Source: Candidatus Jordarchaeales archaeon (GTDB lineage: Archaea; Asgardarchaeota; Jordiarchaeia; Jordiarchaeales; Freyrarchaeaceae). Taken from it: 32,000 nucleotides of DNA. The position numbers and the translations under genes were made by a program. Shown here piece after piece: positions 9,382 through 32,000 of the stretch. The notes under the pieces are model-generated. The model had not been told where the DNA came from. It did no database searches and saw only the letters and a program-made list of their open reading frames with translations. The DNA is taken from positions 438,058 to 470,057 of the forward strand of contig JAWAHN010000003.1 of NCBI GenBank assembly GCA_038889235.1, written 5' to 3'. How positions within the stretch are numbered: the first letter of the stretch is position 1; each line of letters starts with the position of its first letter.

Positions 9382-11486
9382 CTTAGCCTAGGCTTCTCAA
9401 AGTGCACGACTGGAAGCACACCGACACCGTAGCTGTAAACCTTAGCCCTCATAAACTCCTCGCTCGTAGGCTCGCCTTTCAGGGGGATTATGGCAGCCCT
9501 GACCGTCCAGCTGCCGGAAAGGTGCTCGAACTCGTTGTCTTTGAAAGTTGTCTCGGTCACGAAGAACGAGACCTCGCTCCTAGCGTCCTTAACCTCCTTC
9601 ATAGCCCTAACACCGCAGTCAGCTGCAACGAGGAAGCCAACGTCTCCGCTGAAGACCGCCGCCCAGTCATTCACCAGCAGGAACCTCTGCTTTCCCTTTT
9701 CAATCCTTACCTTACTGATGTAGCCCCCGAGCTCTCTCCATATCGTCCTCGGCCTGGGAAGACTTAGCACCAGTAGCTCAGCAGATCCGGAAAGCCTTCT
9801 GTGAACGCTTGCCTGCGTCTCGACCTCCAGCATGGGGAGCCCGTCGTAAACCCTGTACTTGTTCACAACTGTGGAGTGCTCAGATGGTTTAAACGTGGAT
9901 GTGACCTCGGCGTAGACCCCGCGCTCCCCCCTGTTGGTCACCTCAACCTTCACTTCGCCATCCGGCTTATCCCCCTCAAGCTTAAACCGCTGGGAAATGA
10001 GCGGGGCTTCACCCCCGTAAGTCACTCCTGCCCCTGGGCAGGATATGATTGACGGAAAGCCGCCGTCCAGCTTAACTTCGACCAGTCCGTTTGACAGCAG
10101 GTTCTCAGAGGCGTGGAGCACCCCCCTGCCACTTGAAGGGGTGCCCTTTGCGAGGGTTAGTGTGGCGGTTTCGTCTGCTCCCAAGCTGCCCGTTAAGGCC
10201 AGCACTCCCCACTTGAGGAAGCCGTCGGGGAAGAGCTTAGCCGCGATTAGGTCGCACGCGACCTGCTTTCCGTCTAGGTTGGCTGACAGCTCGCTCGGCT
10301 TGAAGAGACCCCTGTCGAACTCGACTTCAACCCTTAGAGGTGTCGGTGGCGTCGGGAATCCGTGGAAGTTGTAGAGAACTATCTGCCTTGCGCCTTCGGG
10401 TGGGCGCTTAAACCTCAACGTCTTCTCGCTGAGAATCGTGGAGGCTATGTTGGCTTTCTCGTAGGCGAGCCTCAACTCGTACTCTCCTTGGATTCTCTTT
10501 TCAGCCCTAGGGTTCCAGCCAAACTTGTCCGAGTTTTGCCCTAAGAGTAGCCAGTGCTTTGCTTCAGCTATCTCTCTTTCCTCGGTCTCGACGTTTAAGC
10601 CGGCGCTTTTTGCGCGCTTAAGCCACCACTCTGCCTTCGCTATTTCTCTGCGCGCCACCTCGTTGAGGGTCCAGAGGTGCTGGTCCCATGGGTCGCGGAG
10701 CCACATGCCATGATCATATACGCCTAGAGCCCATGTGGAGTCGAGCAGGTTTACGGTGACACCCTGAGGAGCCTTCTCCACTATCTCGCTCGCAAGGGCA
10801 AACCTTACGCCTTCCATCCCGCGGAGCGCCTCGACTATCGCTTTGAGGCGCGAGGGGTTAGCTATCTCGGCATCGTCCAGAATGGTTAAGCCGCCCCCAA
10901 GCTCCACGGCTTTCTTGACTACGTTGACGGGGTCTAGGAGGGATGAAACGTGGAGTATGAATGGCAGTTTCGCGCCGTCCTCGCCTTCGACGACGTGAAC
11001 CCTGAAGTCGCTTGACACTCTCTTGTCGAAATCGCTTACTTGGAGGTAGTTGAGGAGAAGGAATTTTACCCCCAGCCTCCTGAGCATGGAGGGGAGGAAC
11101 GGGTGGTATGCGCCCTCCTGGGCGAAGTAGCCTTGAGAAACGCGGCCGAACGCGCGCTTAAGCCCCTCCACCGCCATCTCGTGTTGAAAAGCGAACTCCT
11201 CCCAGGTGTGCATCGACGCCAAGCTGAAAGACCACGTGTCGAGTATGACTTCGAACTGGCCTCTCTTCACTCCCTCCCTTATCCCGTCCAGCACGTCTGG
11301 GGCAACCCTTTCGAGGAATGGGATGGTCTTCGACACCTCGACGTCCCATCCAATCCTAACGTCAGGGTTCTCCAGCGCGAACTCCAGGAGCCCCCTGTAA
11401 AGGTTTGGAAACCATCTCAAAACCTGTTCGTCGGTATATTCCGCATACCACATGTTCACGTGGAAGTTGAAGTTCACGAAGAACAT
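9378..11486 (-). CDS. Glycoside hydrolase family 57-like protein with C-terminal beta-sandwich domain
   Basis: FNFHVNMWYAE start, FLERVAPDV, FAQEGAYHP (nucleophile region), DDAEI, STWA, LLGQNSD; ATG start at 11486 preferred. Confidence 0.7.
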   Translation of the reverse strand: MFFVNFNFHVNMWYAEYTDEQVLRWFPNLYRGLLEFALENPDVRIGWDVEVSKTIPFLERVAPDVLDGIREGVKRGQFEVILDTWSFSLASMHTWEEFAFQHEMAVEGLKRAFGRVSQGYFAQEGAYHPFLPSMLRRLGVKFLLLNYLQVSDFDKRVSSDFRVHVVEGEDGAKLPFILHVSSLLDPVNVVKKAVELGGGLTILDDAEIANPSRLKAIVEALRGMEGVRFALASEIVEKAPQGVTVNLLDSTWALGVYDHGMWLRDPWDQHLWTLNEVARREIAKAEWWLKRAKSAGLNVETEEREIAEAKHWLLLGQNSDKFGWNPRAEKRIQGEYELRLAYEKANIASTILSEKTLRFKRPPEGARQIVLYNFHGFPTPPTPLRVEVEFDRGLFKPSELSANLDGKQVACDLIAAKLFPDGFLKWGVLALTGSLGADETATLTLAKGTPSSGRGVLHASENLLSNGLVEVKLDGGFPSIISCPGAGVTYGGEAPLISQRFKLEGDKPDGEVKVEVTNRGERGVYAEVTSTFKPSEHSTVVNKYRVYDGLPMLEVETQASVHRRLSGSAELLVLSLPRPRTIWRELGGYISKVRIEKGKQRFLLVNDWAAVFSGDVGFLVAADCGVRAMKEVKDARSEVSFFVTETTFKDNEFEHLSGSWTVRAAIIPLKGEPTSEEFMRAKVYSYGVGVLPVVHFEKPRLS

Positions 11487-11787
11487 GCAGAGACCTCCCT
11501 CACAAAGCCTTACTATTCCGGCGAACATCGTAATTAATTTTTTCAAGGACTGTGCTTCCAAGCAGATGCACGCCCTCGAAGACCGGGTTAAGGTTCTGGC
11601 GGCAGCACCGCGAACCTCGGCTCTCAGGAGAACAACGGAGGCTGCTACCGCCCTAGAGCCGTGAGTGTTGCGTGTCCCCCTTGAGGAAAAAAGTGGGGGT
11701 TGCGAGGGGTTAGGGTTTAAGGGGGCTTTAGTGCGTAAAGTTAAGTTGGAAGCCTAGTGGTCTATTGGTTTTCGGCTGCAGTTTGGG

Positions 11788-13032
11788 GTGGTCTTGTTGA
11801 GTGAGTCTGAGGCTTTCGCCGCCGTGGATGAGATGAGGGGTGAAGCCGTCCGCCTGCTCAGGGAGCTGGTGAAAATAGACACGGTTGTCCCCCCAGGGCG
11901 TGGCTATGGGGAGATGGTGGATTTCCTCGATCCAGTGTTCTCAGAGCTCGGTTTCAGAACGAAAAGGGTTGTCGTTCCGGAGGAGAAGGTTAAGCTCATC
12001 CCTTACCCCTTGGAGGGGCCACGCGTTAACCTTGTGGCGAGGAGGGAGGCGGACAAGCCCCCGCTCACCATATACGCTCACATGGACGTGGTTCCCGTCG
12101 AGGAGAAGTGGAGTGTACCGCCCTTTGAGGGAGTCGTGAAGGACGGCAGGATCTACGGGCGCGGCGTGGCGGACATGAAAGGGTTTATAGCAACTGTTGT
12201 GACTGCGTTAAGGGTGGTACACGAGCTGGGCTTAAAACCGAACTACGACATCACCTGCGTGATGTGCACCGACGAGGAGCTCGGAGTATACCCTGGAGTC
12301 TACTACTTGGTGGATAAGGGCTACGTGAGAGGGGACGTGATATGCGGCGAGCTAGTCCACGGCATCATAGGGGTCGGCTTCGCCGGGTCAGTCCACTTCA
12401 AAGTGAAGGTTAAGGGTAAGTCCGCGCACACCGGGATGTGGTGGACTGCCGTCAACGCCATCGAGAACGCGCTCCCAATACTCGAGGAGGTGGTGAAGCT
12501 TAAGGAGAAGCTGGTTGCACGGAGGTCAGAGGTGCCGACTGTGCCAACCCCCTTCGGGGACAGGCTGGTTCCAACAATCTCGGTCAACATGGTGCATGGA
12601 GGGGTCAAGGAGAACATAATTCCAGGAGAGTGCACTTTCTCCGTCGACAGGAGGTACATACCAGAGGAGGACGAGGAGGAGGTTGTATCCGAGTTTCTCA
12701 GGATTGTCGAAGCCGGCAAGGCTAAGAGCAAAGCCCTAGACGTGGAGGTAAGCACAGTTAAAGTTTACAAGCCGTTCAAGGTGAGCCCGGAGAGGCCTAT
12801 AGTGAGAAAGCTCGCGGAAGCCGTGAGGCACGTGACGGGGAGCCAGCCGGCGTTCATAGGAGTCGCCGGGTCGACTGACATGGGGTACGTCGCCCAGAAG
12901 GGGCACGACGTCGCAGTTATGGGCGTCGGAGACATATTCTCTAACTTCCACGGAGCGGACGAAAACATAAGGGTAGATGACATGCTCACGTACGCCAAGG
13001 AACTAATCTACCTAACATGCTTCCAACGATAG
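11788..13032 (+). CDS. M20 family metallopeptidase (ArgE/DapE-like)
   Basis: YAHMDVVP, GRGVADMKG, DEE, GKSAH, FHGADE. Confidence 0.92.
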   Translation: MVLLSESEAFAAVDEMRGEAVRLLRELVKIDTVVPPGRGYGEMVDFLDPVFSELGFRTKRVVVPEEKVKLIPYPLEGPRVNLVARREADKPPLTIYAHMDVVPVEEKWSVPPFEGVVKDGRIYGRGVADMKGFIATVVTALRVVHELGLKPNYDITCVMCTDEELGVYPGVYYLVDKGYVRGDVICGELVHGIIGVGFAGSVHFKVKVKGKSAHTGMWWTAVNAIENALPILEEVVKLKEKLVARRSEVPTVPTPFGDRLVPTISVNMVHGGVKENIIPGECTFSVDRRYIPEEDEEEVVSEFLRIVEAGKAKSKALDVEVSTVKVYKPFKVSPERPIVRKLAEAVRHVTGSQPAFIGVAGSTDMGYVAQKGHDVAVMGVGDIFSNFHGADENIRVDDMLTYAKELIYLTCFQR

Positions 13033-21272: not shown

Positions 21273-22088
21273 CTAGGAGTTGGCGCCGCTCTTCTCTTTT
21301 TTCGGAAGCTCAACGTCCACTACTCCCATTCCCCCCGTCCTCTTCACCCCAATGTTCGAGTACGTGGCATACTCTGAGAGCACCGCGACCCATGGAGCGT
21401 ACCCGTCGGTTTTCTTTAGGTAGAAGTCTGCGTGGCCTACGAAGCCGGCCACCCTCCTCTCCTTTCCCATGGAGACGGTCACGGTTCTCAGCGAGTAGTT
21501 GCGCACGTACACGTTGTCTGAAACCCACTTGTAAAGCTCGTCCACGTCGACCTTAACGTAGTCTGGTGCGAAGGCGTTCCACAGCCTCGCAACGCTCGGG
21601 TAAATGTACCTCGGGTCCGGGAAGAGGAAGGGGAACTCGACGCCGTGCACCGAGAGCTGCGTCGGGGTCCTAAAGAACACTCTGAACCTGTCGCTGACCG
21701 ACACCCCCTCGATGAGCTCCTCGTAGCTCTTCCTCTTCACGCCCACCTCGACGAGTGAGAAGTCCACCTCCCCGAGCTTAACCTTGAAGTCGAAGAGGCG
21801 CTCCAGCAGCTTCTCTCCAACCTCGTCGACGAGGAAGCCCAGCCGAAAACGGAACTCGTCCCCAACCCTGACGTGGAAAAGGTCGCCGTGAACCCTCCCC
21901 TTGCCAACCGGGAAGGCCGGGGAGACACTGTAGGGTCTAAGCTGGTTTGGAGCGTGGAGAGCGTTAGCGAGGCCCGGGTCCACTTTGGCGAAGAAGCCCA
22001 GAAGCCCACCCCTAACCAGGTGCCCCGAAAACCGCCTTATGCCGCCCGAGCTAAGGGCTGAGACTTTAACCACAAGTCCCAGGGGCAT
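21273..22088 (-). CDS. cas6: CRISPR pre-crRNA endoribonuclease Cas6
   Basis: Gly-rich C-terminal loop YSNIGVKRTGGMG, RPYSVSP, FRTPT, LFPDP, GFVG motifs; next to a CRISPR array. Confidence 0.92.
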   Translation of the reverse strand: MPLGLVVKVSALSSGGIRRFSGHLVRGGLLGFFAKVDPGLANALHAPNQLRPYSVSPAFPVGKGRVHGDLFHVRVGDEFRFRLGFLVDEVGEKLLERLFDFKVKLGEVDFSLVEVGVKRKSYEELIEGVSVSDRFRVFFRTPTQLSVHGVEFPFLFPDPRYIYPSVARLWNAFAPDYVKVDVDELYKWVSDNVYVRNYSLRTVTVSMGKERRVAGFVGHADFYLKKTDGYAPWVAVLSEYATYSNIGVKRTGGMGVVDVELPKKEKSGANS

Positions 22089-22134
22089 GCACGTCCCTCC
22101 ATTCAGACCGCCGGAGAAACGCCAGCTTCCACAC

Positions 22135-23670
22135 TCATCCAGTTGACGTTAACCCTAGTTTTTCACCTGCAGCTGGCACTCCAATGGATGGGTGAGCATA
22201 GGGGGTTTGCACGTACTTCGTCCTCCTCGGCCTTATGTCGACCAGTATCGGCGTCCTCGTCGCCATACCTGTGACCATTGCGGTCCCGGTTGGCAGCAGG
22301 GGTATCCTTTCGGCTTCGTCGGCGCTCGCGTAGTCAAGGATGGGCTTAAGGTACTCTATGTCGTAGGCCCCCTCTATTCGCAGTATGATCTTCGTGCCGC
22401 ACTGCGTTAAAACATCCTTGTCGAGCCCCGCAACCCTCTGGCTCGTCAGGCACAATGTAACACCAAACTTTCTCCCCTCCCTGGCTATCTTCCTCAGCAC
22501 AGAAGCACAGTAGCTTTTAACCCCCTGCGGCGCGAACCTATGGCTCTCCTCCACCACCACGACCACCGGTGGAATCTCACCCCTCCTCCTCGCATTAAAA
22601 ATTTTCTCTAAAACCACCCCGACCACAGTCCTTCTAATCTCCTCGTCCACCCCTCCGCTCACATCCAGGACCGTGAGGTGGCCCGGCTTGACTAGGTCAC
22701 CGACCTTCACGCTCTCCCCGAAGAAGACGAACTCGTTCAGAGCCTGCAGCTTCCTTAAGATAGCCGCCAGCGTGTTCCTCTGGAAACCCCACTCCCTCGC
22801 AGTAGTCTTTACAGCGGCCAGCAAGTCGTCCAGCCTATACCCCTTGCCCCCTATCTTCCTGAGAGCTAGGTGGAGGAGGTCTGCCTGCGCGTCGCTTAGG
22901 TCGCACACCTCGGCTAGAGCATACGGGTTCAGGTCATCTATGCTTATCGACAGCTTCCTGTCTCCCTCTTCCCCCAGCGAGTAGACAGTTGTCGGGAAGC
23001 CTCTCGGCGCCAGGCCAAGCGCCCTCACCCTTTCAATTTCCTCCGGGTTGTTGTTCGCCTGCGAGAAGAACCTGTACTCTCCGTGTGGGTCGACAGCCAC
23101 CACGGGGAACCCTTTCTCGAGGAGTTCCTCAACGAGCACACCGACCGCGTAAGACTTCCCGCTCCCCGTGGCCCCTAGGACCGCAACGTGGTATGGTAAG
23201 AGGAGCTCCGGGCTCAGCGCGACCCTGACATCGTTATTCCCCCTCATGGTGCCAATGAATAGCCCGTCCGGCCTGAACTTTAGGAAGGCCTCGAGGAGCT
23301 CGGCCTTAGCCCTGTAAACCGTGTCCCCCGGCTCGGGTGGCACCTCAGGAGGCAGCAGCCTGTCCCCCCGCAGGACACCCACAACCCTAACCTTCGCCAC
23401 CCTCCACCTTCCAACTCGCGTTGGGAAGCGCGCCTTAACCGGGATACCTTCCTCCAGGTGGAATTGGAGGAACTCCGGGCTGGAGAAGTACTCGTTGTAC
23501 GTCTGGATCGAGTACACGCGGCCAATCATCACGCTCAGTCCAAGGGGGACCTCGACGTACTCTCCAACCTTCACCTCGACGTCCCCGGCAACCTGAAAGG
23601 AGAAGGCCAAGTGGTTTGGGGTCTGCCCGTCGCATATTATCGTTCCAAGCTCGACCGCACGCTCAGCCAC
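22135..23670 (-). CDS. herA: HerA-like ATPase with N-terminal HAS barrel
   Basis: HVAVLGATGSGKSY (Walker A), DPHGEY, VVEESHRF (Walker B), REGRKFG, SQRV; GTG start at 23670 after GGAGG overlapping the upstream stop. Confidence 0.93.
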   Translation of the reverse strand: MAERAVELGTIICDGQTPNHLAFSFQVAGDVEVKVGEYVEVPLGLSVMIGRVYSIQTYNEYFSSPEFLQFHLEEGIPVKARFPTRVGRWRVAKVRVVGVLRGDRLLPPEVPPEPGDTVYRAKAELLEAFLKFRPDGLFIGTMRGNNDVRVALSPELLLPYHVAVLGATGSGKSYAVGVLVEELLEKGFPVVAVDPHGEYRFFSQANNNPEEIERVRALGLAPRGFPTTVYSLGEEGDRKLSISIDDLNPYALAEVCDLSDAQADLLHLALRKIGGKGYRLDDLLAAVKTTAREWGFQRNTLAAILRKLQALNEFVFFGESVKVGDLVKPGHLTVLDVSGGVDEEIRRTVVGVVLEKIFNARRRGEIPPVVVVVEESHRFAPQGVKSYCASVLRKIAREGRKFGVTLCLTSQRVAGLDKDVLTQCGTKIILRIEGAYDIEYLKPILDYASADEAERIPLLPTGTAMVTGMATRTPILVDIRPRRTKYVQTPYAHPSIGVPAAGEKLGLTSTG

Positions 23671-23674
23671 TCGT

Positions 23675-25114
23675 TCATCCTCCAAACGACTTCTTCGCTC
23701 TCTCAGAGTCTCTAGCCCCCTGAATCTTTTCCAGCATGCCCAGCAAGCCCGCCTTGAGGCCGACCTCAACAGACTTCTCGAGCGACAGCAGGTTGTTCAT
23801 AGCCTCCTGCCTAGCCACGGAAACCACGCTCGGCCCCGCCTCGATTCTCTCCCTCAACGGGGCGGAGGTCAAAGTGTAAGCCAAGTCGGCAACCCTCTTG
23901 TGGTCGCTCAGCGGGTCCCTCGACACAAACTCGTACTTCGTCACTATGCCCCCCCGGGACAGGTAGAACTCGTAGACGTCCTTGACAGGAGGCTTACCCT
24001 TCTCCTCCCCCCTCTCTATCAGACACGTGGAGTCACCGTCCTTCAAGACCAAGGAGAGGAAGGCGAGGTCGTTCGCCTTACCCGGAATCCCACCGAGGAC
24101 CTTGCTGCAAACCCTGAAGAACACGTTGTCAGCCGAAGTCGGGCTAACCCCGACCAGCGTGACCCCCTTCTCGCGCGCCACCCTAACCAGCTCATAGAAC
24201 AACTTGTTGCAAGTATCCCTCAGCCTAGCAAGAGTCTTAGACGCCACAAGGAAGCCGTGGGGGACCAGCGAGCCAAGCCTAAAGTAGACGTCGAATTTGT
24301 CGCCGAGCTCCTCCAACAACTGTATCCCAAGCCTGTAGTGCTGAATCTCCCTCAAATACCTCGCCGCAATACTCCTCCCCGCCTGCAAAAGCTCCGGAAA
24401 GTCCGTGGAGAACTCGAAGAACGGGTCCCCCTCCCCGAAGGGCTCAAAACCCTTAAAAGCGTGCAAGTCGGGAATCCGCCTCCTAACCGACTTATCCGGG
24501 TTAAGAACACCTCGCTCAAAAAAGCCAACAAAACCCCCAACACTCATACAGACAACAGTCAAAACAGTAAAGTCGAACAACGCCAAGTTACGAATACTGT
24601 GAGCCGGAGCCGAGCCGGCAACACATACACCGTCAAGAAAAACCTCCCTCGCAAAACCCGGAAGAACAAGGCGCTCACCAAGAAGCCTAACAGGCAAAAC
24701 ACGCCCCCCAACAGCCACCCCAACCAGCCTCTCCCTAACCTCCTCCCCCGAAACCATCGGAAACTCAAGCTTCTTCAAAACACGCAAAACCTTCCCCGAA
24801 ACAGGCCCACCAACCAAGCCAGCCTGCAACCCCCCAAAATCCTCAACAACAGAAGTATAGGAAGGCTCAAAAAACAAATCCTCCCCCACCCTCCTAGCAA
24901 AATCCTCATTAACAACATACCTCCCAGCACCCCTATAAGACAAAACCCCCAAACTCACAAGGTCATCAAGATAATCCTTCACAGCCCTCTCAGTCAAATC
25001 AACCCTCTCAGCAAGCCTACCAACACGAACCTCACCATCAACAGACTGAAGCTCCAAACAAGCATAAAAAACCACAGCAAGCCTAGCCCTATAAGTCGAC
25101 CCAGTCCGCCCCAA
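23675..25114 (-). CDS. Winged-helix domain fused to NurA-like (RNase H fold) domain with degenerate active site
   Basis: N-term GRLAERVDLTERAVKDYLDDLVSLGVL wHTH; VCVAGS / REIQHY / YFRLGSL / LVGVSPTS resemble NurA motifs with Asp replaced; translationally coupled to herA; TTG start at 25114 after GGTGGTG. Confidence 0.65.
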   Translation of the reverse strand: MGRTGSTYRARLAVVFYACLELQSVDGEVRVGRLAERVDLTERAVKDYLDDLVSLGVLSYRGAGRYVVNEDFARRVGEDLFFEPSYTSVVEDFGGLQAGLVGGPVSGKVLRVLKKLEFPMVSGEEVRERLVGVAVGGRVLPVRLLGERLVLPGFAREVFLDGVCVAGSAPAHSIRNLALFDFTVLTVVCMSVGGFVGFFERGVLNPDKSVRRRIPDLHAFKGFEPFGEGDPFFEFSTDFPELLQAGRSIAARYLREIQHYRLGIQLLEELGDKFDVYFRLGSLVPHGFLVASKTLARLRDTCNKLFYELVRVAREKGVTLVGVSPTSADNVFFRVCSKVLGGIPGKANDLAFLSLVLKDGDSTCLIERGEEKGKPPVKDVYEFYLSRGGIVTKYEFVSRDPLSDHKRVADLAYTLTSAPLRERIEAGPSVVSVARQEAMNNLLSLEKSVEVGLKAGLLGMLEKIQGARDSERAKKSFGG

Positions 25115-25236
25115 AACAACACCACCAGAAATAAACTTCCAAAAAAACAATACAATACAAAAAATAAAAACATAACCCAACACCCAACCCCAACACCAGC
25201 AAACCCACCCCATCCTCCAAACTCAAACATCCTTTT

Positions 25237-25272
25237 CTTTCAATCCCCACTTGTTGGGACTGTTTTTGTTTC
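25237..25272 (-). CRISPR. Degenerate terminal (trailer) CRISPR repeat, isolated from the rest of the array by a 3,025-bp insert
   Basis: ctttcaatccccacttgttgggactgtttttgtttc: 34/36 identical to the array consensus. Confidence 0.93.
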
Positions 25273-26267
25273 GTATAATTCCGCAAGTGTGTGAGGCCTT
25301 CCTCACAGAGAGACAGAAGTATGATGACCAACTTTTAAAACTAGAGGCTGGAACCGAAGAATACGAGAACATCAAGGCGAAGAGAGACGTGATGAAGTTC
25401 CTCACGAACGCCGTCTACGGATACCTGGCGTACCGGGGTAGCAGAATGTTTGACGTTGATGTTGCGTCAACGGTGACAGCTCTGGCTAGAGAGGGAATAA
25501 TGAAGGTGTTAGAATTCTTCGAACAGCTGGGGTATCGCCCGCTATACTGTGACACAGACAGTGTCTTCGTCCAAATGCCGTTTGACAAGGCCACAGCGGT
25601 CGTCTCCCAGGTCAACAAAATGCTGGAGAAATACCTGACAGAGAAGTATGGAATCAAGAAGTGTAACATCAAGTTGAAGTTTGAGAAGTATTCATCCAAA
25701 GTTCTGTTTCTTGGAGTTAAGAAAAGGTATGCCATGAAGGTCGTGTGGGAAGGTTCTGAATGCAACTACGTCAAAGTCGTCGGATTCGAAGCTAAGAGAA
25801 CAGACCAGTCGGAGTTCACGAGGAAGTTGCAGAACGACGTCCTCAACATGTTGCTCAATGGTCAAAGCCTACACGAAATAGTCAGCTACGTCAGGGAGTC
25901 TGTGAAGGGATACAGGGAACGAAGCCTAGATGAAATCTCTATCCCTAAAGGGATCGATAAACCTCTACATGAATACAAGTCGAAGCCACCTCACGTCAAA
26001 GGAGCCCTGCTAGCGAACGCATATCTAGGAGCCAGGTTCGGTGTCGGCAGCAAGGTGAAAATGTTGTACGTCAAGCATGTTCCAGGCTTGCCTAGGACGG
26101 ATGTGATATGTTTTGAAACACCCAAACAGCTGCCCGAAGGCGTGGAGGTGGACTGGGATAGGATGATTGAGGTCTCTGTCAAGCAGAAGTTGGAAGACAT
26201 ACTGGAAGCGGTTGGTATAGGTTGGTCAAACATTCTCGGGTCTGAGAACCTTGACAGGTGGTTGTGA
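25273..26267 (+). pseudogene. polB: 5'-truncated family B DNA polymerase (fingers, part of palm, thumb)
   Basis: Starts at IIP (normally GIIP) at the repeat edge; motif B KFLTNAVYGY, motif C YCDTDSVF, KKRYA, GFEAKRTD; motif A and exonuclease domain missing. Confidence 0.9.
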
Positions 26268-26914
26268 TGTTAGTTGCAGATGCAAACGAACCCGTAGAGA
26301 TAGTTTCTAGGCTCCGGGAACTGGGTTTGGAAGTCGAAGTGAAGCGGTTGGATGTAGGAGACTACCTCGCCACTACGTCTGAATTCACAGTTGCCTTCGA
26401 GAGGAAGACTGCTGAAGACTACATCTCAAGTCTGGAGACTGGAAGACTGAACAACCAGGCCTACCAACTGTCCGTCAACTTCCCCATCTCCTTCCTGTGC
26501 ATCATAGGTTCAGTTTCCTACGCTCTCTCCTTCAGGAAGATCAACAGGAAAGCGTATATCTCCTCGATCTCAAGCATCGCTCTGAAAAGGGCAGGGGACG
26601 GCTGTAGAGGTCAAGTCATCTCACTGCAATTTGAAACAGAATATGACTTCACGCTGTTCGTGAAGTGCGTCCACGACCAGCTGTGCAAAGGGGAGTTTGA
26701 AAGGGTTCCCAGACTGAAGGCCCCAGGTGTGGGTAAGAGTGAAAAATTCATAATGCTGACAGCAATCCCCGGAATCGGTGAGAGGAAGGCGAGGAAGATC
26801 TATGAGCACTTCGGAAGCATAGAAGCCGTGGTTAAAGCCTCCGTCCAGGAGCTGATGGAGGTTGAAGGAATAGGGGTTGAGACAGCGAGGAAGATCTATG
26901 AATTCTTCAGGTAG
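26267..26914 (+). CDS. ERCC4/XPF-family nuclease with C-terminal (HhH)2
   Basis: ADANE, VGDY, AFERKT..DY..S...GRL..Q, LTAIPGIGERKA, VEGIGVETA; ATG overlaps polB stop (TGATG). Confidence 0.9.
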   Translation: MLVADANEPVEIVSRLRELGLEVEVKRLDVGDYLATTSEFTVAFERKTAEDYISSLETGRLNNQAYQLSVNFPISFLCIIGSVSYALSFRKINRKAYISSISSIALKRAGDGCRGQVISLQFETEYDFTLFVKCVHDQLCKGEFERVPRLKAPGVGKSEKFIMLTAIPGIGERKARKIYEHFGSIEAVVKASVQELMEVEGIGVETARKIYEFFR

Positions 26915-26916
26915 GG

Positions 26917-27225
26917 GTGGTCAGGTTGACGGAGGAAATGCTGGTGGAGGCGTGTAAGAGGTTTCCGTACGATGACCACAGGAGGTATCTGTTGTTCCTG
27001 TGTGGTGCGCTGGGAATACAGGAGGATGTGGCACAGATGATCTCGTGGAGGATTTCAAGGGGAGATAAAGGGACTGTGAAGTTCATCGTCAGATTGCTGG
27101 TGCATTCAGGGAATGGTAGGACACTGTCACGATTCCTGCGGATCCTGGAGCCAAACCTAGCTGGGGAGTTTATGACTGAGGAGGTTATCAAGTTAATTAT
27201 AGAAGCGGAGGTGAGTAAAAAGTGA
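26917..27225 (+). CDS. Hypothetical protein (102 aa)
   Basis: Fills the gap between the ERCC4 and AAA genes, with a GTGA overlap to the next gene. Confidence 0.6.
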   Translation: MVRLTEEMLVEACKRFPYDDHRRYLLFLCGALGIQEDVAQMISWRISRGDKGTVKFIVRLLVHSGNGRTLSRFLRILEPNLAGEFMTEEVIKLIIEAEVSKK

Positions 27226-28205
27226 AGAAGGATGTCTTCTTAGACGAAAGGCTCAGGGAGGCGATGAAGAAGATAATAGAGTATGAGGAGAGAGAAGAGG
27301 AGAGAATCGCCAAGGACGAGGTTCTCTCCAAGCTGGGTGTGAAGCCTTACTGGGACTGGCAGGACGTCGGAGTTGACTTCAACGACATAAAGAAGCTGAG
27401 GATTGCAGGGGTCGTGATGGTCATCGGTGGGAGGAGGAAGCGCTACCTACTCGTCAACCGTGAGGAGACGAAGAGGAGAATTGAGGAGATCGAAAGGTTG
27501 GAGCGTGAGGCAATAAACGCTGCAATATCCCAGCCCATCCAGGTGCCGGAAGACATGTTCGACGTGATAATCGGGTATGACGACATGAAGAAGTTCCTGA
27601 AAAAAGTGGTGACCTTAGACGAGCCGTTCCACGTGCTCTTCGTCGGTCCACCAGGCACTGCGAAAACCCTCTTCCTCATGGAGTTCGAAAGAATCCCACG
27701 GTCCAAACTCATAACGGCCGGAACGAGCACCAAGGTCGGGATAAGAGACCTACTGATCGAGGAGAGACCGAGGTTCCTCCTGATAGACGAGTTGGAGAAG
27801 ATAGGGGACCCGAACGACTTGAGCGTTCTACTGACACTGATGGAGTCTCAACGAGTCATCGTAACCAAACACGGAAGCATCACTGAGGAGAGGTTCCCAT
27901 GCTCCGTCATCGCCGCCTGCAACAGCACCAAGAAACTGCCCCAAGAACTGTTGGACAGGTTCCAGGTGTTCCGGCTGAGGAAGTATACGAGAGAAGAATA
28001 CATAGAGATAGTCAAGACCTTCCTCACGAAGAGGAGGGGTGTGAGTGAAGACGTGGCAAAGTACATCGCTGAGAAGGTTTCAGAGTACACGCTGTCCGTC
28101 AGGGAAGCTGTGAGAGTGTCAAAGGTTGCGAAAACCATTGAAGAGGTAGATAAGGTAATAAAGCTGTTTAGAACGTATTCAAACACACAGGAGGTGAGTG
28201 AATGA
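27222..28205 (+). CDS. AAA+ ATPase (RuvB-like core) with N-terminal extension
   Basis: Walker A GPPGTAKT, Walker B FLLIDELEK, sensor AACN, Arg finger LLDRF. Confidence 0.9.
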   Translation: MKKDVFLDERLREAMKKIIEYEEREEERIAKDEVLSKLGVKPYWDWQDVGVDFNDIKKLRIAGVVMVIGGRRKRYLLVNREETKRRIEEIERLEREAINAAISQPIQVPEDMFDVIIGYDDMKKFLKKVVTLDEPFHVLFVGPPGTAKTLFLMEFERIPRSKLITAGTSTKVGIRDLLIEERPRFLLIDELEKIGDPNDLSVLLTLMESQRVIVTKHGSITEERFPCSVIAACNSTKKLPQELLDRFQVFRLRKYTREEYIEIVKTFLTKRRGVSEDVAKYIAEKVSEYTLSVREAVRVSKVAKTIEEVDKVIKLFRTYSNTQEVSE

Positions 28206-28297
28206 AAGGAGAGGTCTGCGAGTAATGCATAACGATATTCTGCATCGGCGTCGTGGCCTACGCTCTGTCAACGAGCATCGAAAGCGCCTTCTACATA
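28202..28297 (+). pseudogene. Probable broken N-terminus of the next foreign gene (membrane-like), cut by the repeat
   Basis: ATG overlaps the AAA stop (ATGA) after GAGGTGA; reads MKGEVCE*CITIFCIGVVAYALSTSIESAFYI up to the repeat. Confidence 0.35.
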
Positions 28298-31200
28298 CTT
28301 TCAATCCCCATTTGTGGGGACTGTTTTTGTTTCTTTTGGGGTCCCGGCTGAGGACCCCTCGGAGGAAGACTTCTTTCAATCCCCATTTGTGGGGACTGTT
28401 TTTGTTTCTTGGACGAGTTGACAAACGTCCAGAGGGAGGACGTCTTATCTTTCAATCCCCATTTGTGGGGACTGTTTTTGTTTCATAATATACATCACGA
28501 CGGCACGGGAACCAAAGGTTTCCGCTTTCAATCCCCATTTGTGGGGACTGTTTTTGTTTCTTTTGAACCCGTCCCTCGCGAACACCCATCGGAAGACCTG
28601 ACCTTTCAATCCCCATTTGTGGGGACTGTTTTTGTTTCGAGAAGGTGGTGCTGTTACCACCTGAAAATCGAACCGCTAAACTTTCAATCCCCATTTGTGG
28701 GGACTGTTTTTGTTTCTGGGAGGCGGCCAAGGCCATAGCCGAAATGGTGGAAAACTTTCAATCCCCATTTGTGGGGACTGTTTTTGTTTCCCGTTGCCAT
28801 GGTGTTTCCTCGTGGACTAGTGAAGTGTACTTTCAATCCCCATTTGTGGGGACTGTTTTTGTTTCTCGAAATGTTGGTTCCGGAGTCAGCTTCAATCTTC
28901 ACTCTTTCAATCCCCATTTGTGGGGACTGTTTTTGTTTCACGCGGTATTTCTGAGGCAAAGCGGCAGGTGGTACATTTTCTTTCAATCCCCATTTGTGGG
29001 GACTGTTTTTGTTTCTCCACGTGTTCGGGGTTGGAAGCACGATTACAATGCACCCTTTCAATCCCCATTTGTGGGGACTGTTTTTGTTTCCCAACATCTC
29101 AAATGTGCTCGAAGACGCCGCCAAGAACCACCTTTCAATCCCCATTTGTGGGGACTGTTTTTGTTTCCCCCTAACTCCCCCATTTTATTACTTGTTTCAA
29201 GAAGCCGCTTTCAATCCCCATTTGTGGGGACTGTTTTTGTTTCGCGGAGGCAAAGCCTCGCGAAGGCGGCGAACTTCCTCTGCTTCACTTTCAATCCCCA
29301 TTTGTGGGGACTGTTTTTGTTTCTAGTCGACGAACTCGCGGAAGACGCCGCGCCTTAAGAGGTCTTTCAATCCCCATTTGTGGGGACTGTTTTTGTTTCT
29401 AAACGCAAAAGCTTCATCCACACCTCTATGCTCTCCTTTCAATCCCCATTTGTGGGGACTGTTTTTGTTTCACAAGATAGTAGTCGAGCGACCCAGCGGG
29501 ATCAAATTTACCTTTCAATCCCCATTTGTGGGGACTGTTTTTGTTTCGATTGAAAGTTCTCATCCCGCGGGGCTCTGATCCCCAGCCATGAAACTTTCAA
29601 TCCCCATTTGTGGGGACTGTTTTTGTTTCAGCAGATAAAAGAGCTTGAGAAGGCCATCAGGCAGAACTTTCAATCCCCATTTGTGGGGACTGTTTTTGTT
29701 TCCAGAGAAAGCACCGCGCTCTCCGGCCTCTTCTTCAACCCTTTCAATCCCCATTTGTGGGGACTGTTTTTGTTTCTGCAAAGTCCTCTGGCACGTCTGA
29801 AGAGATGACCTTGTTCCACTTTCAATCCCCATTTGTGGGGACTGTTTTTGTTTCGGGAGGCTGTTGAGAAGTTGAAGAAAACCATTGAAAGTGTCTTTCA
29901 ATCCCCATTTGTGGGGACTGTTTTTGTTTCTGAACGAAAAAGACTGGGCACCTATCATAATGTATCACTTAGCTTTCAATCCCCATTTGTGGGGACTGTT
30001 TTTGTTTCCTAGGACACGCTAACCCAAAACCCGAAAGCCGCCTCTGAGCTTTCAATCCCCATTTGTGGGGACTGTTTTTGTTTCAAGAGATACCGGTGTA
30101 TCCTCCGGGTATAGGCGGAATATGCTTTCAATCCCCATTTGTGGGGACTGTTTTTGTTTCCCCGGACCCGGTCACTTGCAGGACCCTGAAGCATATCTCT
30201 TTCAATCCCCATTTGTGGGGACTGTTTTTGTTTCTAGTAACTTGAACGCCGACATGGTTGACGGAAAACACTCACACTTTCAATCCCCATTTGTGGGGAC
30301 TGTTTTTGTTTCTTGCGTGTTCGAGTTCAAAACAACGCGGAAGTTCACGCTTTCAATCCCCATTTGTGGGGACTGTTTTTGTTTCAACATCGTCCGCGAG
30401 ATAATTGAAATTATTAAAGAAATCTTTCAATCCCCATTTGTGGGGACTGTTTTTGTTTCCCATCCACCTCCAGCGATAACAGTGAAAACCCTAATAACTT
30501 TCAATCCCCATTTGTGGGGACTGTTTTTGTTTCGCGCGTTCCTACACGGCTACCCGACGAGCAGGGACTTCACCTTTCAATCCCCATTTGTGGGGACTGT
30601 TTTTGTTTCCGAAATCCTCTTCCGCGGGATCTCTGCTATATTTTCCAACTTTCAATCCCCATTTGTGGGGGACTGTTTTTGTTTCATGTAAAAGTGCGGC
30701 AGATTACCGGTCCGGGGGAAAACTTTCAATCCCCATTTGTGGGGGACTGTTTTTGTTTCTTTCGGGTCCGTGATCAGAACCGAGAGGAGCGGTGTCTCTT
30801 TCAATCCCCATTTGTGGGGGACTGTTTTTGTTTCTGCTAGCAACCATTTCAAATCTAAAAGGGCTACCAACTGACTTTCAATCCCCATTTGTGGGGGACT
30901 GTTTTTGTTTCTTTAACAAACGATCTCGTGTGGGGAAGCATTCCCCACTGGGTCTTTCAATCCCCATTTGTGGGGGACTGTTTTTGTTTCAGGCTCCGAT
31001 GTCGCCGAGTATCCCGGAATAGGCGGTGGCTTTCAATCCCCATTTGTGGGGGACTGTTTTTGTTTCGAGCAAGACGTAAAAAAACAAAGGGAAGCTGATC
31101 AAGAAGCCTTTCAATCCCCATTTGTGGGGGACTGTTTTTGTTTCGATTCTCGTCTCGGCGCTGAACAAGCAGAGGGAGAAGTACACTTTCAATCCCCATT

Positions 31201-31988
31201 TGTGGGGGACTGTTTTTGTTTCCTGGAAGCTTACGAATGGAAACACAAATTCAATCCATTCACTTTCAATCCCCATTTGTGGGGGACTGTTTTTGTTTCT
31301 AAGATTTGTAGTTTTGGGAGTACGGCATATCCACCGTACCTTTCAATCCCCATTTGTGGGGGACTGTTTTTGTTTCATACTGAGGAGGATGCTTGAAAAG
31401 AGCCACGTTCCAAAGACTTTCAATCCCCATTTGTGGGGGACTGTTTTTGTTTCGTCTTGGGCTTAAACTTCTTCAGCTTTTGAATTCGCCTAACTTTCAA
31501 TCCCCATTTGTGGGGGACTGTTTTTGTTTCCGCTACTAGGTCACCGTGGCGCTCCGCGACCTCAATCCACTCTTTCAATCCCCATTTGTGGGGGACTGTT
31601 TTTGTTTCGAAAGACGCCTTTAGATGGTGGAGAAAAGGCATAATCAACTTTCAATCCCCATTTGTGGGGGACTGTTTTTGTTTCGCCCCGCAACGCCCTC
31701 TTGATTTTCTCCTTCAACTCACTGTCTTTCAATCCCCATTTGTGGGGGACTGTTTTTGTTTCTTCTAGCGTTAATCTGTGTAGCTGGCTTGGTGTCACCT
31801 TTCAATCCCCATTTGTGGGGGACTGTTTTTGTTTCATTATAGTTTGGATGTATGAAGCTGTTGCACAACAGCTTTCAATCCCCATTTGTGGGGGACTGTT
31901 TTTGTTTCCTAACGCCGGCTTCAAGCTTATCACCTGCGCTTGAACTTTTTACTTTCAATCCCCATTTGTGGGGGACTGTTTTTGTTTC
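28298..31988 (-). CRISPR. CRISPR array: 49 repeats here (31 x 36 nt, then 18 x 37 nt), spacers 36-46 nt; continues to or past the right edge
   Basis: Repeat on minus strand GAAACAAAAACAGTCCCC(C)ACAAATGGGGATTGAAAG; CCCCA-CAAA-TGGGG stem ends at the canonical 8-nt ATTGAAAG handle; degenerate repeat at left end implies the leader lies to the right. Confidence 0.99.
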
Positions 31989-32000
31989 CTAACGCCGGCT

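Follow-up and report, generated by a model that had tools for sequence, protein, structure and literature searches.

To our knowledge, a single gene-sized pseudo-spacer, i.e. a piece of foreign DNA long enough to hold genes and lying where a spacer belongs in a CRISPR array, has been published (in 2013), and the mechanism behind it was never settled. This element, SiL-E1, is a ~2-kb piece of a pING1-like plasmid with five open reading frames (ORFs), located between two identical repeats of CRISPR_2 in Sulfolobus islandicus LAL14/1, and was called unprecedented at the time (Jaubert et al. 2013, Open Biol 3:130010; PMC3718332). Two candidate mechanisms were left open, the same two that are weighed below, including the recombination between spacers and protospacers that Jaubert et al. 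2013 proposed (PMC3718332). Here, we analyzed a 32,000-nt stretch of DNA (the window; contig C3, bases 438058-470057) from the genome of a hot-spring Jordarchaeales archaeon of the Asgard group (G000, hereafter the window genome), in which 3,025 bp of foreign DNA lie between two CRISPR repeats. The best explanation of this insert is that this Jordarchaeales lineage was infected by a virus or mobile element, a fragment of which now fills the last slot for a spacer in a CRISPR array of type I-A/III-B. As far as we know, it is the first gene-sized pseudo-spacer in Asgard archaea.

A replication-module fragment in spacer position

The insert is bordered on one side by a degenerate repeat (25237-25272) with 2 mismatches to the 36-nt repeat of the array (chance matches: 0 in 100 shuffles), and on the other by the first regular repeat, at 28298. 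A repeat scan returned the same 3,025 bp between 25272 and 28298 that a preliminary description of this stretch had measured, and both borders proved repeat-exact. On the left, polB codons begin with the first bases after 25272, with no spare bases; on the right, the insert abuts the repeat with a 92-nt tail that gave no homology match. Ordinary spacers, previously put at 36-46 nt, are indeed far shorter than the insert, but their range is wider: across all four arrays of the window genome, to which our spacer statistics refer, 132 spacers are 36-48 nt long and one reaches 54 nt (insert excluded). To the right of the insert, the array continues with 31 copies of the 36-nt repeat without mismatch (28298 to 30609), followed by 18 copies of a 37-nt variant with one additional G, from 30649 until the window ends. 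Read as its reverse complement, the repeat has the end ATTGAAAG, and the younger GGGGG variant, found at the right end here, is found at the leader end of the array on contig C2, beside a visible T-rich leader. Together, these features indicate that CRISPR RNAs (crRNAs) are made from the minus strand and that the leader lies to the right, so that the insert occupies the oldest (trailer) slot, next to a typical degenerate terminal repeat. The trailer-end position assigned earlier is thus upheld, whereas the accompanying claim that the insert represents the oldest event in the array follows only if an integrase placed it there.

The first gene of the insert encodes a family B DNA polymerase of which the C-terminal 45% is present; its frame stays open for 330 codons to its natural stop. 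Its first residues, I-I-P-Q-V-C, align to the conserved G-I-I-P of family B polymerases of 725-750 aa, and it covers positions 119-450 of 453 in the PF00136 profile and 464-844 of 856 in phrog_262. Pfam and an alignment with 725-750-aa homologues (≤52% identity) agree with the preliminary description that the insert starts inside polB and that both motif A and the exonuclease domain (PF03104) are missing; the fragment therefore lacks part of the set that defines a functional family B polymerase, namely the exonuclease domain plus motifs A, B, and C. The ERCC4-type nuclease with helix-hairpin-helix (HhH) motifs that comes next is full length with an intact GDY...ERKxxxD motif, and its homologues directly follow polB in two virus-like metagenomic contigs, L014 (218 aa) and L013 (225 aa). 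After a small ORF, the last gene encodes an ATPase in which Walker A (GPPGTAKT) and Walker B (IDELEK) are both present, and which has 148 homologues, many of them on virus-like contigs. For the remaining 92 nt, a homology search detected nothing; this tail could belong to the beginning of another viral gene or be in part an old spacer. The earlier statement that the insert ends inside the start of another gene was accordingly not substantiated, its basis being a 24-codon ORF in 28206-28297 without homology. The genes carried are cut at the left end in mid-polB, and the gene set is incomplete.

Several lines of evidence identify this DNA as foreign, as had been proposed. L013 and L014, which hold the best polymerase homologues, share the order polB, ERCC4-HhH nuclease, one or two small genes, and the same ATPase, and their neighboring genes include queuosine-type DNA-modification genes, a STIV B116-like gene, and a NUMOD3 endonuclease. 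This common gene order indicates that the insert corresponds collinearly to part of a replication module from a virus or mobile element, with an identity to its virus-like relatives of only 30-52% at the amino-acid level. The G+C content of the insert is 0.497, compared to 0.565 for the left flank. No further part of the element was found in the window genome when the N-terminal half of polB and other genes of the module were sought, and only two chromosomal polymerases match this N-terminal half, weakly.

The absence of an integrase, cas1, and terminal inverted repeats noted previously was confirmed by a Pfam scan, which also returned no transposase domain, and by repeat searches, which found neither terminal inverted repeats nor a direct repeat between the insert ends. 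We therefore rejected an insertion sequence or transposon (no transposase, no terminal inverted repeats, and ends that cut genes), an integrated provirus (no integrase, structural genes, or direct repeat between the ends), and a casposon (no Cas1 casposase of its own and no terminal inverted repeats). An ordinary spacer acquired by Cas1-Cas2 is incompatible with a length of 3,025 nt, compared to 36-54 nt in 133 spacers. Integration by a single (Campbell) crossover through one spacer is out because the insert ends share no direct repeat, a virus-borne repeat acting as recombination site because the junction falls within polB and the residues encoded by the repeat are unlike polymerase, and a provirus split by array rearrangement because the genome contains nothing else of the element.

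Table 1 Features of the insert, the array, and the left flank (window coordinates).
Feature	Position	Strand	Basis or remark
Insert in spacer position (pseudo-spacer), 3,025 bp	25273..28297	+	collinear replication-module fragment
Family B DNA polymerase, C-terminal ~330 codons	25275..26267	+	PF00136, phrog_262, alignment
ERCC4-type nuclease, two C-terminal HhH motifs	26258..26914	+	PF02732, PF14520
Small ORF, 102 aa (95 aa from 26938)	26917..27225	+	no family match
MCM-like AAA+ ATPase, 327 aa	27222..28205	+	PF00493, PF07728, PF00004
92-nt tail	28206..28297	.	24-codon ORF
Degenerate terminal CRISPR repeat	25237..25272	-	2 mismatches, both in hairpin
CRISPR array, 49 further repeats (31 GGGG, then 18 GGGGG leaderward)	28298..32000	-	runs off contig end
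Last 30 nt of conserved flank	25207..25236	.	30-mer unique in genome; divergence point 25236/25237
479/512-aa gene (left flank)	23675-25114/25213	-	no Pfam match
herA-type ATPase (left flank)	22135-23769	-	PF01935/PF05872
cas6 (left flank)	21273-22088	-	Pfam PF10040

Variation within the population and in related genomes

The insert is real and heritable DNA, not an assembly chimera. Independent assemblies were located by exact protein identity, a look-up that found only two Logan contigs. One Logan contig (L015; k = 31, 3,119 bp, run SRR21619497) is identical to window positions 25207-28325 at 100%; it starts with 30 nt of flank that are unique in the genome and runs unbranched across the degenerate repeat and the entire insert to end 28 nt into the following repeat. 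If an assembler had entered a co-assembled virus via one protospacer and left it via another, a branch would be needed ~40 nt inside each end; since unitigs stop at branches and L015 does not, this contig of another assembler argues against such a chimera. In a second run (SRR27730019), one contig (L017) covers the flank and reaches 18 nt into the degenerate repeat, past its first diagnostic base, and another (L041) matches window positions 26210-28325 at 98.9%, so that a second sample holds a 1.1%-diverged allele with an identical right junction between insert and repeat. Neither the genome nor the records of these runs contain an intact parent polymerase or other genes of a virus. The state of the window genome, a 2.14-Mb draft (95% complete) in 8 contigs with N gaps, several of which end in arrays, would make an artifact conceivable, yet with two independent assemblies from two samples speaking against the de Bruijn chimera considered in the preliminary description, we judge this explanation highly improbable.

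Conspecific assemblies with flanks 99.85-100% identical (mostly ~99.9%) diverge exactly at 25236|25237, where three configurations were observed. The window continues into the degenerate repeat and the insert, while L020 continues into a plain array composed of a regular repeat, an ordinary spacer, and an extra-G repeat. The third configuration, seen in L016 and L019, has no repeat but a 718-aa cas3 that ends 14 nt within the shared flank, and only one short contig is on record for its further context. Two Logan contigs of SRR21619497 overlap by exactly 30 nt (k-1), at 25207..25236, and a k-1 overlap at this point means that at least two configurations coexist in this sample. The genome of a sister species (G003) follows the cas3 configuration collinearly across the junction and has kept a 3' remnant of cas3, which indicates that the array-bearing configurations are derived and that the outer border of the terminal repeat is a novel junction. 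The outer border of the degenerate repeat (25236/25237) is thus itself a rearrangement breakpoint.

Between the two samples, the insert alleles differ at 23 of 2,116 positions (21 transitions) and the flank at 16 of 13,982, with no difference in its last 2.9 kb. Either the insert is older than the coalescence of the flank, or it has exchanged sequence with related viruses via fixed anchors. The allele differences comprise 11 synonymous and 12 non-synonymous changes, with 67.5% non-synonymous expected (P = 0.09); this is no significant departure from neutrality and not decisive as to selection on the cargo.

Evidence from the sister species comes from contig C34 of G003 and from a longer conspecific contig, L042. 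Both carry a homologue of the insert ATPase (64% amino-acid and 72% nucleotide identity to the window copy) at the orthologous place and outside repeats, with an operon of nurA-like, herA, and cas6 genes on one side and CRISPR arrays on the other. In a tree of 51 ATPase homologues, this copy is sister to the window copy (support 91/77); the path between the two amounts to 0.94 substitutions per site, and flanking orthologues are ~80% identical in nucleotides and 84-87% in amino acids. No counterpart of polB, the ERCC4 nuclease, or the small ORF was found in G003. Within the sister ATPase gene, a 37-nt stretch that encodes AKNETLSKLGLK, the counterpart of AKDEVLSKLGVK in the window, resembles the two ends of the CRISPR repeat and occurs twice, once on either side of a 39-nt foreign piece that breaks the gene (L039 1919-2031 on G003:C34, and L042 9886-9998). 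Judging from its sequence, this 37-39-37 unit is the apparent footprint of an off-target Cas1-Cas2 integration (a neo-CRISPR unit). L042 further includes a segment of 1,383 bp (11485-12867) exactly between two 30-nt repeats and two repeats from the trailer, which contains a 121-aa gene running into the repeat and a 246-aa Bles03-like (PF08939) gene, the latter being absent from G000, G001, G002, and G004. Kilobase pieces at repeat borders thus recur in this genus.

Other arrangements of repeats were observed in these genomes. At L042 12868-13420, the 30-nt-repeat array adjoins an array with 50 repeats of the 36-nt type; the two are separated by only 22 nt, which include no leader, and the composite array is presumably read from one leader. 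The interval between cas6 and hdrA in G003 (L039 8279-8385) contains a 35-nt repeat twice, at a spacing of 72 nt, with a mini-array-like geometry, and another species of the genus has a solitary, well-formed CRISPR repeat in non-array DNA (L047 10075-10110, on G002:C23). The long gap between an array relic and the main array of G004 is taken up by a type III cas operon whose spacing is ordinary and inexact; it exemplifies a trivial layout of array relic, cassette, and array, in contrast to the repeat-exact segments.

A parent with an intact polB, which the preliminary description had recommended looking for, was not found. There was no full-length polymerase with more than 52% identity to the fragment among 5.8 billion proteins (including the Logan proteins of SRR21619497 and SRR27730019), and no donor among phage and plasmid records by blastn or among viral contigs by protein comparison. 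Likewise, exact words from both insert ends had no match in viral contigs, nor had the left-end insert word in metagenome contigs or the repeat word in metagenome contigs of the Joint Genome Institute (JGI), and an alignment of polB against genome contigs returned distant relatives only. Spacers from the arrays within reach (the four of G000 and those of L020, L042, and G004) matched neither the insert nor its viral relatives, and the first and last ~40 nt of the insert do not occur as ordinary spacers in these arrays. No spacer matched the window genome, and those of the C3 and C2 arrays matched no phage record.

The window genome has at least four arrays with the same repeat, for which an Rfam search matched no family, and carries type I-A genes and a Cmr2 gene. 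Both of its cas1 genes are on contigs other than C3, and cas1, cas2, and cas4 adjoin a leader on contig C4. The left chromosomal flank (21273..25213, minus strand) is syntenic with G003 at 78-81% nucleotide identity. Two arrays change from GGGG to GGGGG repeats toward the leader (window 30647-32000 and G000:C2:111-3152), and the first ~125 nt of their leaders are in common; the common variant suggests exchange or common templating between arrays. The final two spacers of the window (31907-32000), where contig C3 terminates within the array, start with an identical 12 nt, which may reflect either a duplicated spacer or an assembly loop. On the plus strand, 24500-25236 is extremely rich in C and A (GC skew -0.5, AT skew +0.5), in a stretch upstream of and within the 5' part of the nurA-like gene, and the bias is also found in G003. 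Beyond the trailer of another array (L033 1300-8400, on G000:C5) lie ~750 nt of G/T-rich DNA and then genes for a 415-aa RadA, a FEN1-like protein (C-terminal 60% of the profile only), and a RadB-like ATPase, which possibly form a further module for repair or replication next to a trailer.

Candidate routes of capture and present role

We tentatively attribute the insert to double recombination between two old spacers and their protospacers, a possible rather than a probable origin. The array would once have held two co-oriented spacers against the element, with target sites separated by ~3 kb of its genome; both spacers may have recombined with a linear fragment of the invader, e.g. an interference product. 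An ends-out double crossover over ~40 bp per side would then have swapped the intervening repeat or repeats for the viral DNA between the protospacers, leaving repeat-exact borders and genes cut at both ends, with no integrase and no duplication. We prefer this route because it relies on known reactions alone, would produce the same junctions each time it occurred, and allows the degenerate repeat to be an ordinary terminal repeat, and because the length ruler works for the 133 other spacers in a genome where cas4 is present. In Sulfolobus, ~40-50 bp of homology are enough for recombination, and spacer-protospacer recombination in staphylococci was reportedly observed by Varble and colleagues. 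Several points nevertheless weigh against double recombination. The two postulated anchor spacers are without match in the arrays listed above, and the first 36-46 nt of the insert are not followed by GG, the protospacer-adjacent motif being assumed to be of the CCN type, which may not be that of this system. Two co-oriented and correctly ordered spacers are needed at the oldest end of the array. Double recombination does not explain the sister-species ATPase, which lies beside an array trailer and outside repeats, nor does it explain the breakpoint at the outer repeat border, for which no hypothesis offers a good explanation.

The reaction over which we favor double recombination is integration of long DNA by Cas1-Cas2, which appears rather unlikely. 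Here, the type I-A integrase would have joined the 3' ends of an unprocessed multi-kb viral fragment to the two borders of one repeat, either alone or via an aborted half-site reaction finished by repair, with duplication of the repeat and later addition of spacers leaderward. Repeat-exact borders without any other integration signature speak for such a reaction, as do the presence of cas1, cas2, and cas4 beside the leader on C4 and the position of both kilobase segments one or two slots from the trailer, which is expected upon entry into young arrays. The 37-39-37 unit of the sister species further suggests an integrase that is active and not strictly array-bound. However, all 133 other spacers measure 36-54 nt, so that the ruler works, Cas4 is present, and a later mutation has to be assumed to account for the two positions at which the flanking repeats differ. 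We also know of no direct demonstration of kilobase DNA being inserted by CRISPR Cas1-Cas2; only casposases do so, with terminal inverted repeats. "Faulty protospacer processing" was likewise listed for SiL-E1 (PMC3718332).

Alternatively, there may have been no capture at all, the insert being an old mobile-element remnant beside the trailer and the degenerate repeat all that remains of a second array that decayed or of a rearrangement between arrays, with deletions that chanced upon the repeat borders. The ATPase homologues of G003 and L042, with their orthologous place outside repeats and tree support of 91/77, fit this scenario, although they are far more diverged (0.94 substitutions per site, 64% amino-acid identity) than the flanking orthologues, and polB, the ERCC4 nuclease, and the small ORF are without G003 counterpart. 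Layouts with an array relic, a gene cassette, and an array are ordinary in the family (e.g. the type III operon of G004), solo repeats exist (e.g. in G002), and repeat-repeat recombination is plausible given at least four arrays of the same repeat in which contigs break. The breakpoint at 25236/25237, where conspecifics have cas3 and G003 a cas3 remnant, can be added to these points. Conversely, an old remnant needs a deletion that ended exactly at the inner repeat border and in mid-polB, with a chance of a few percent at best; no leader is found to the right of the degenerate repeat, and the truncated polB frame, open over 330 codons, argues for a young fragment. Overall, we consider this origin unlikely.

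A broader and rather speculative proposal, to which we give little credence, is that the adaptation machinery of Jordarchaeales, and perhaps of type I-A hosts generally, occasionally writes gene-sized invader DNA at a repeat, making arrays occasional sites of gene capture. This could proceed through direct joining of unprocessed fragments by Cas1-Cas2 or through repair of Cas1-made nicks at repeat borders. The captured piece might still be immune-active, by providing a guide at the end nearest the leader and a long RNA antisense to the replication genes of the virus, and the kilobase segment and the off-target integration of the sister species would be products of the same loose integrase.

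At present, the insert is probably passenger DNA whose position at the trailer end makes it tolerable, as no downstream spacers are blocked there. We infer that transcription from the leader runs antisense to all four insert genes; the first run of at least five U on the crRNA strand is found ~700 nt into the insert. Because crRNAs of type I-A and Cmr2-type systems are 3'-trimmed, and genes of both are present in this genome, the ~40 nt beside the repeat at 28298 could still yield a working guide. When folded as RNA, the hairpin of the degenerate repeat has an energy of -10.1 kcal/mol, compared to -14.1 kcal/mol for the regular repeat.

Significance and comparison with known systems

What is new here is the Asgard example itself, the evidence from two samples of a structure that is both inherited and polymorphic, and the kilobase segment and off-target integration of the sister species. 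With these companion events, it becomes testable whether spacer homology or the Cas1-Cas2 integrase writes long DNA into arrays. If recombination is the true route, CRISPR memory is also a route of gene flow from virus to host; if the integrase is responsible, the spacer-length ruler can fail in vivo. Such loci also call for caution in annotation, as array finders split them and the cargo genes would be called host replication genes.

Compared to SiL-E1, whose array we take to be of type I-A, the insert is likewise a kilobase-sized, collinear piece of a mobile element located between two archaeal repeats without unaccounted bases. Both are without attachment sites, strain-specific, and followed by ordinary spacer-repeat units, and in the insert these traits come with exact borders, an incomplete gene set, and the absence of an integrase and inverted repeats. 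The donors differ, namely an apparent virus replication module for the insert and a conjugative plasmid for SiL-E1, and so does the distance to the closest known donor (≤52-64% amino-acid identity for the insert, 82% nucleotide identity for SiL-E1). Unlike SiL-E1, the insert is in an Asgard host, has a degenerate terminal repeat as one of its flanking repeats, and was recovered from two samples with diverged alleles in a population in which it is polymorphic.

In Staphylococcus, Varble and colleagues are said to have found single crossovers yielding phage-CRISPR hybrids that transduce the locus. Double recombination as favored here resembles this process in that ~30-40 bp of spacer homology join invader DNA at repeat-exact positions, but would involve a stable double crossover in an archaeal chromosome. 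Casposons, in which a Cas1-family integrase inserts multi-kb DNA, come with a cas1 and a polB of their own, are bounded by terminal inverted repeats, and generate duplications of 14-15 bp; an own cas1, terminal inverted repeats, and a 14-15 bp duplication are all lacking in the insert. Finally, off-target integration by Cas1-Cas2 and the resulting neo-CRISPR units were described by Nivala, Shipman and Church 2018 (as cited in a passage of PMC6698737). In such events, a target of repeat length is duplicated around the inserted DNA, a pattern that the 37-39-37 unit of the sister species fits exactly, whereas the pieces inserted off target are of normal spacer length and the insert in the window is ~75 times longer and lies at a true repeat.

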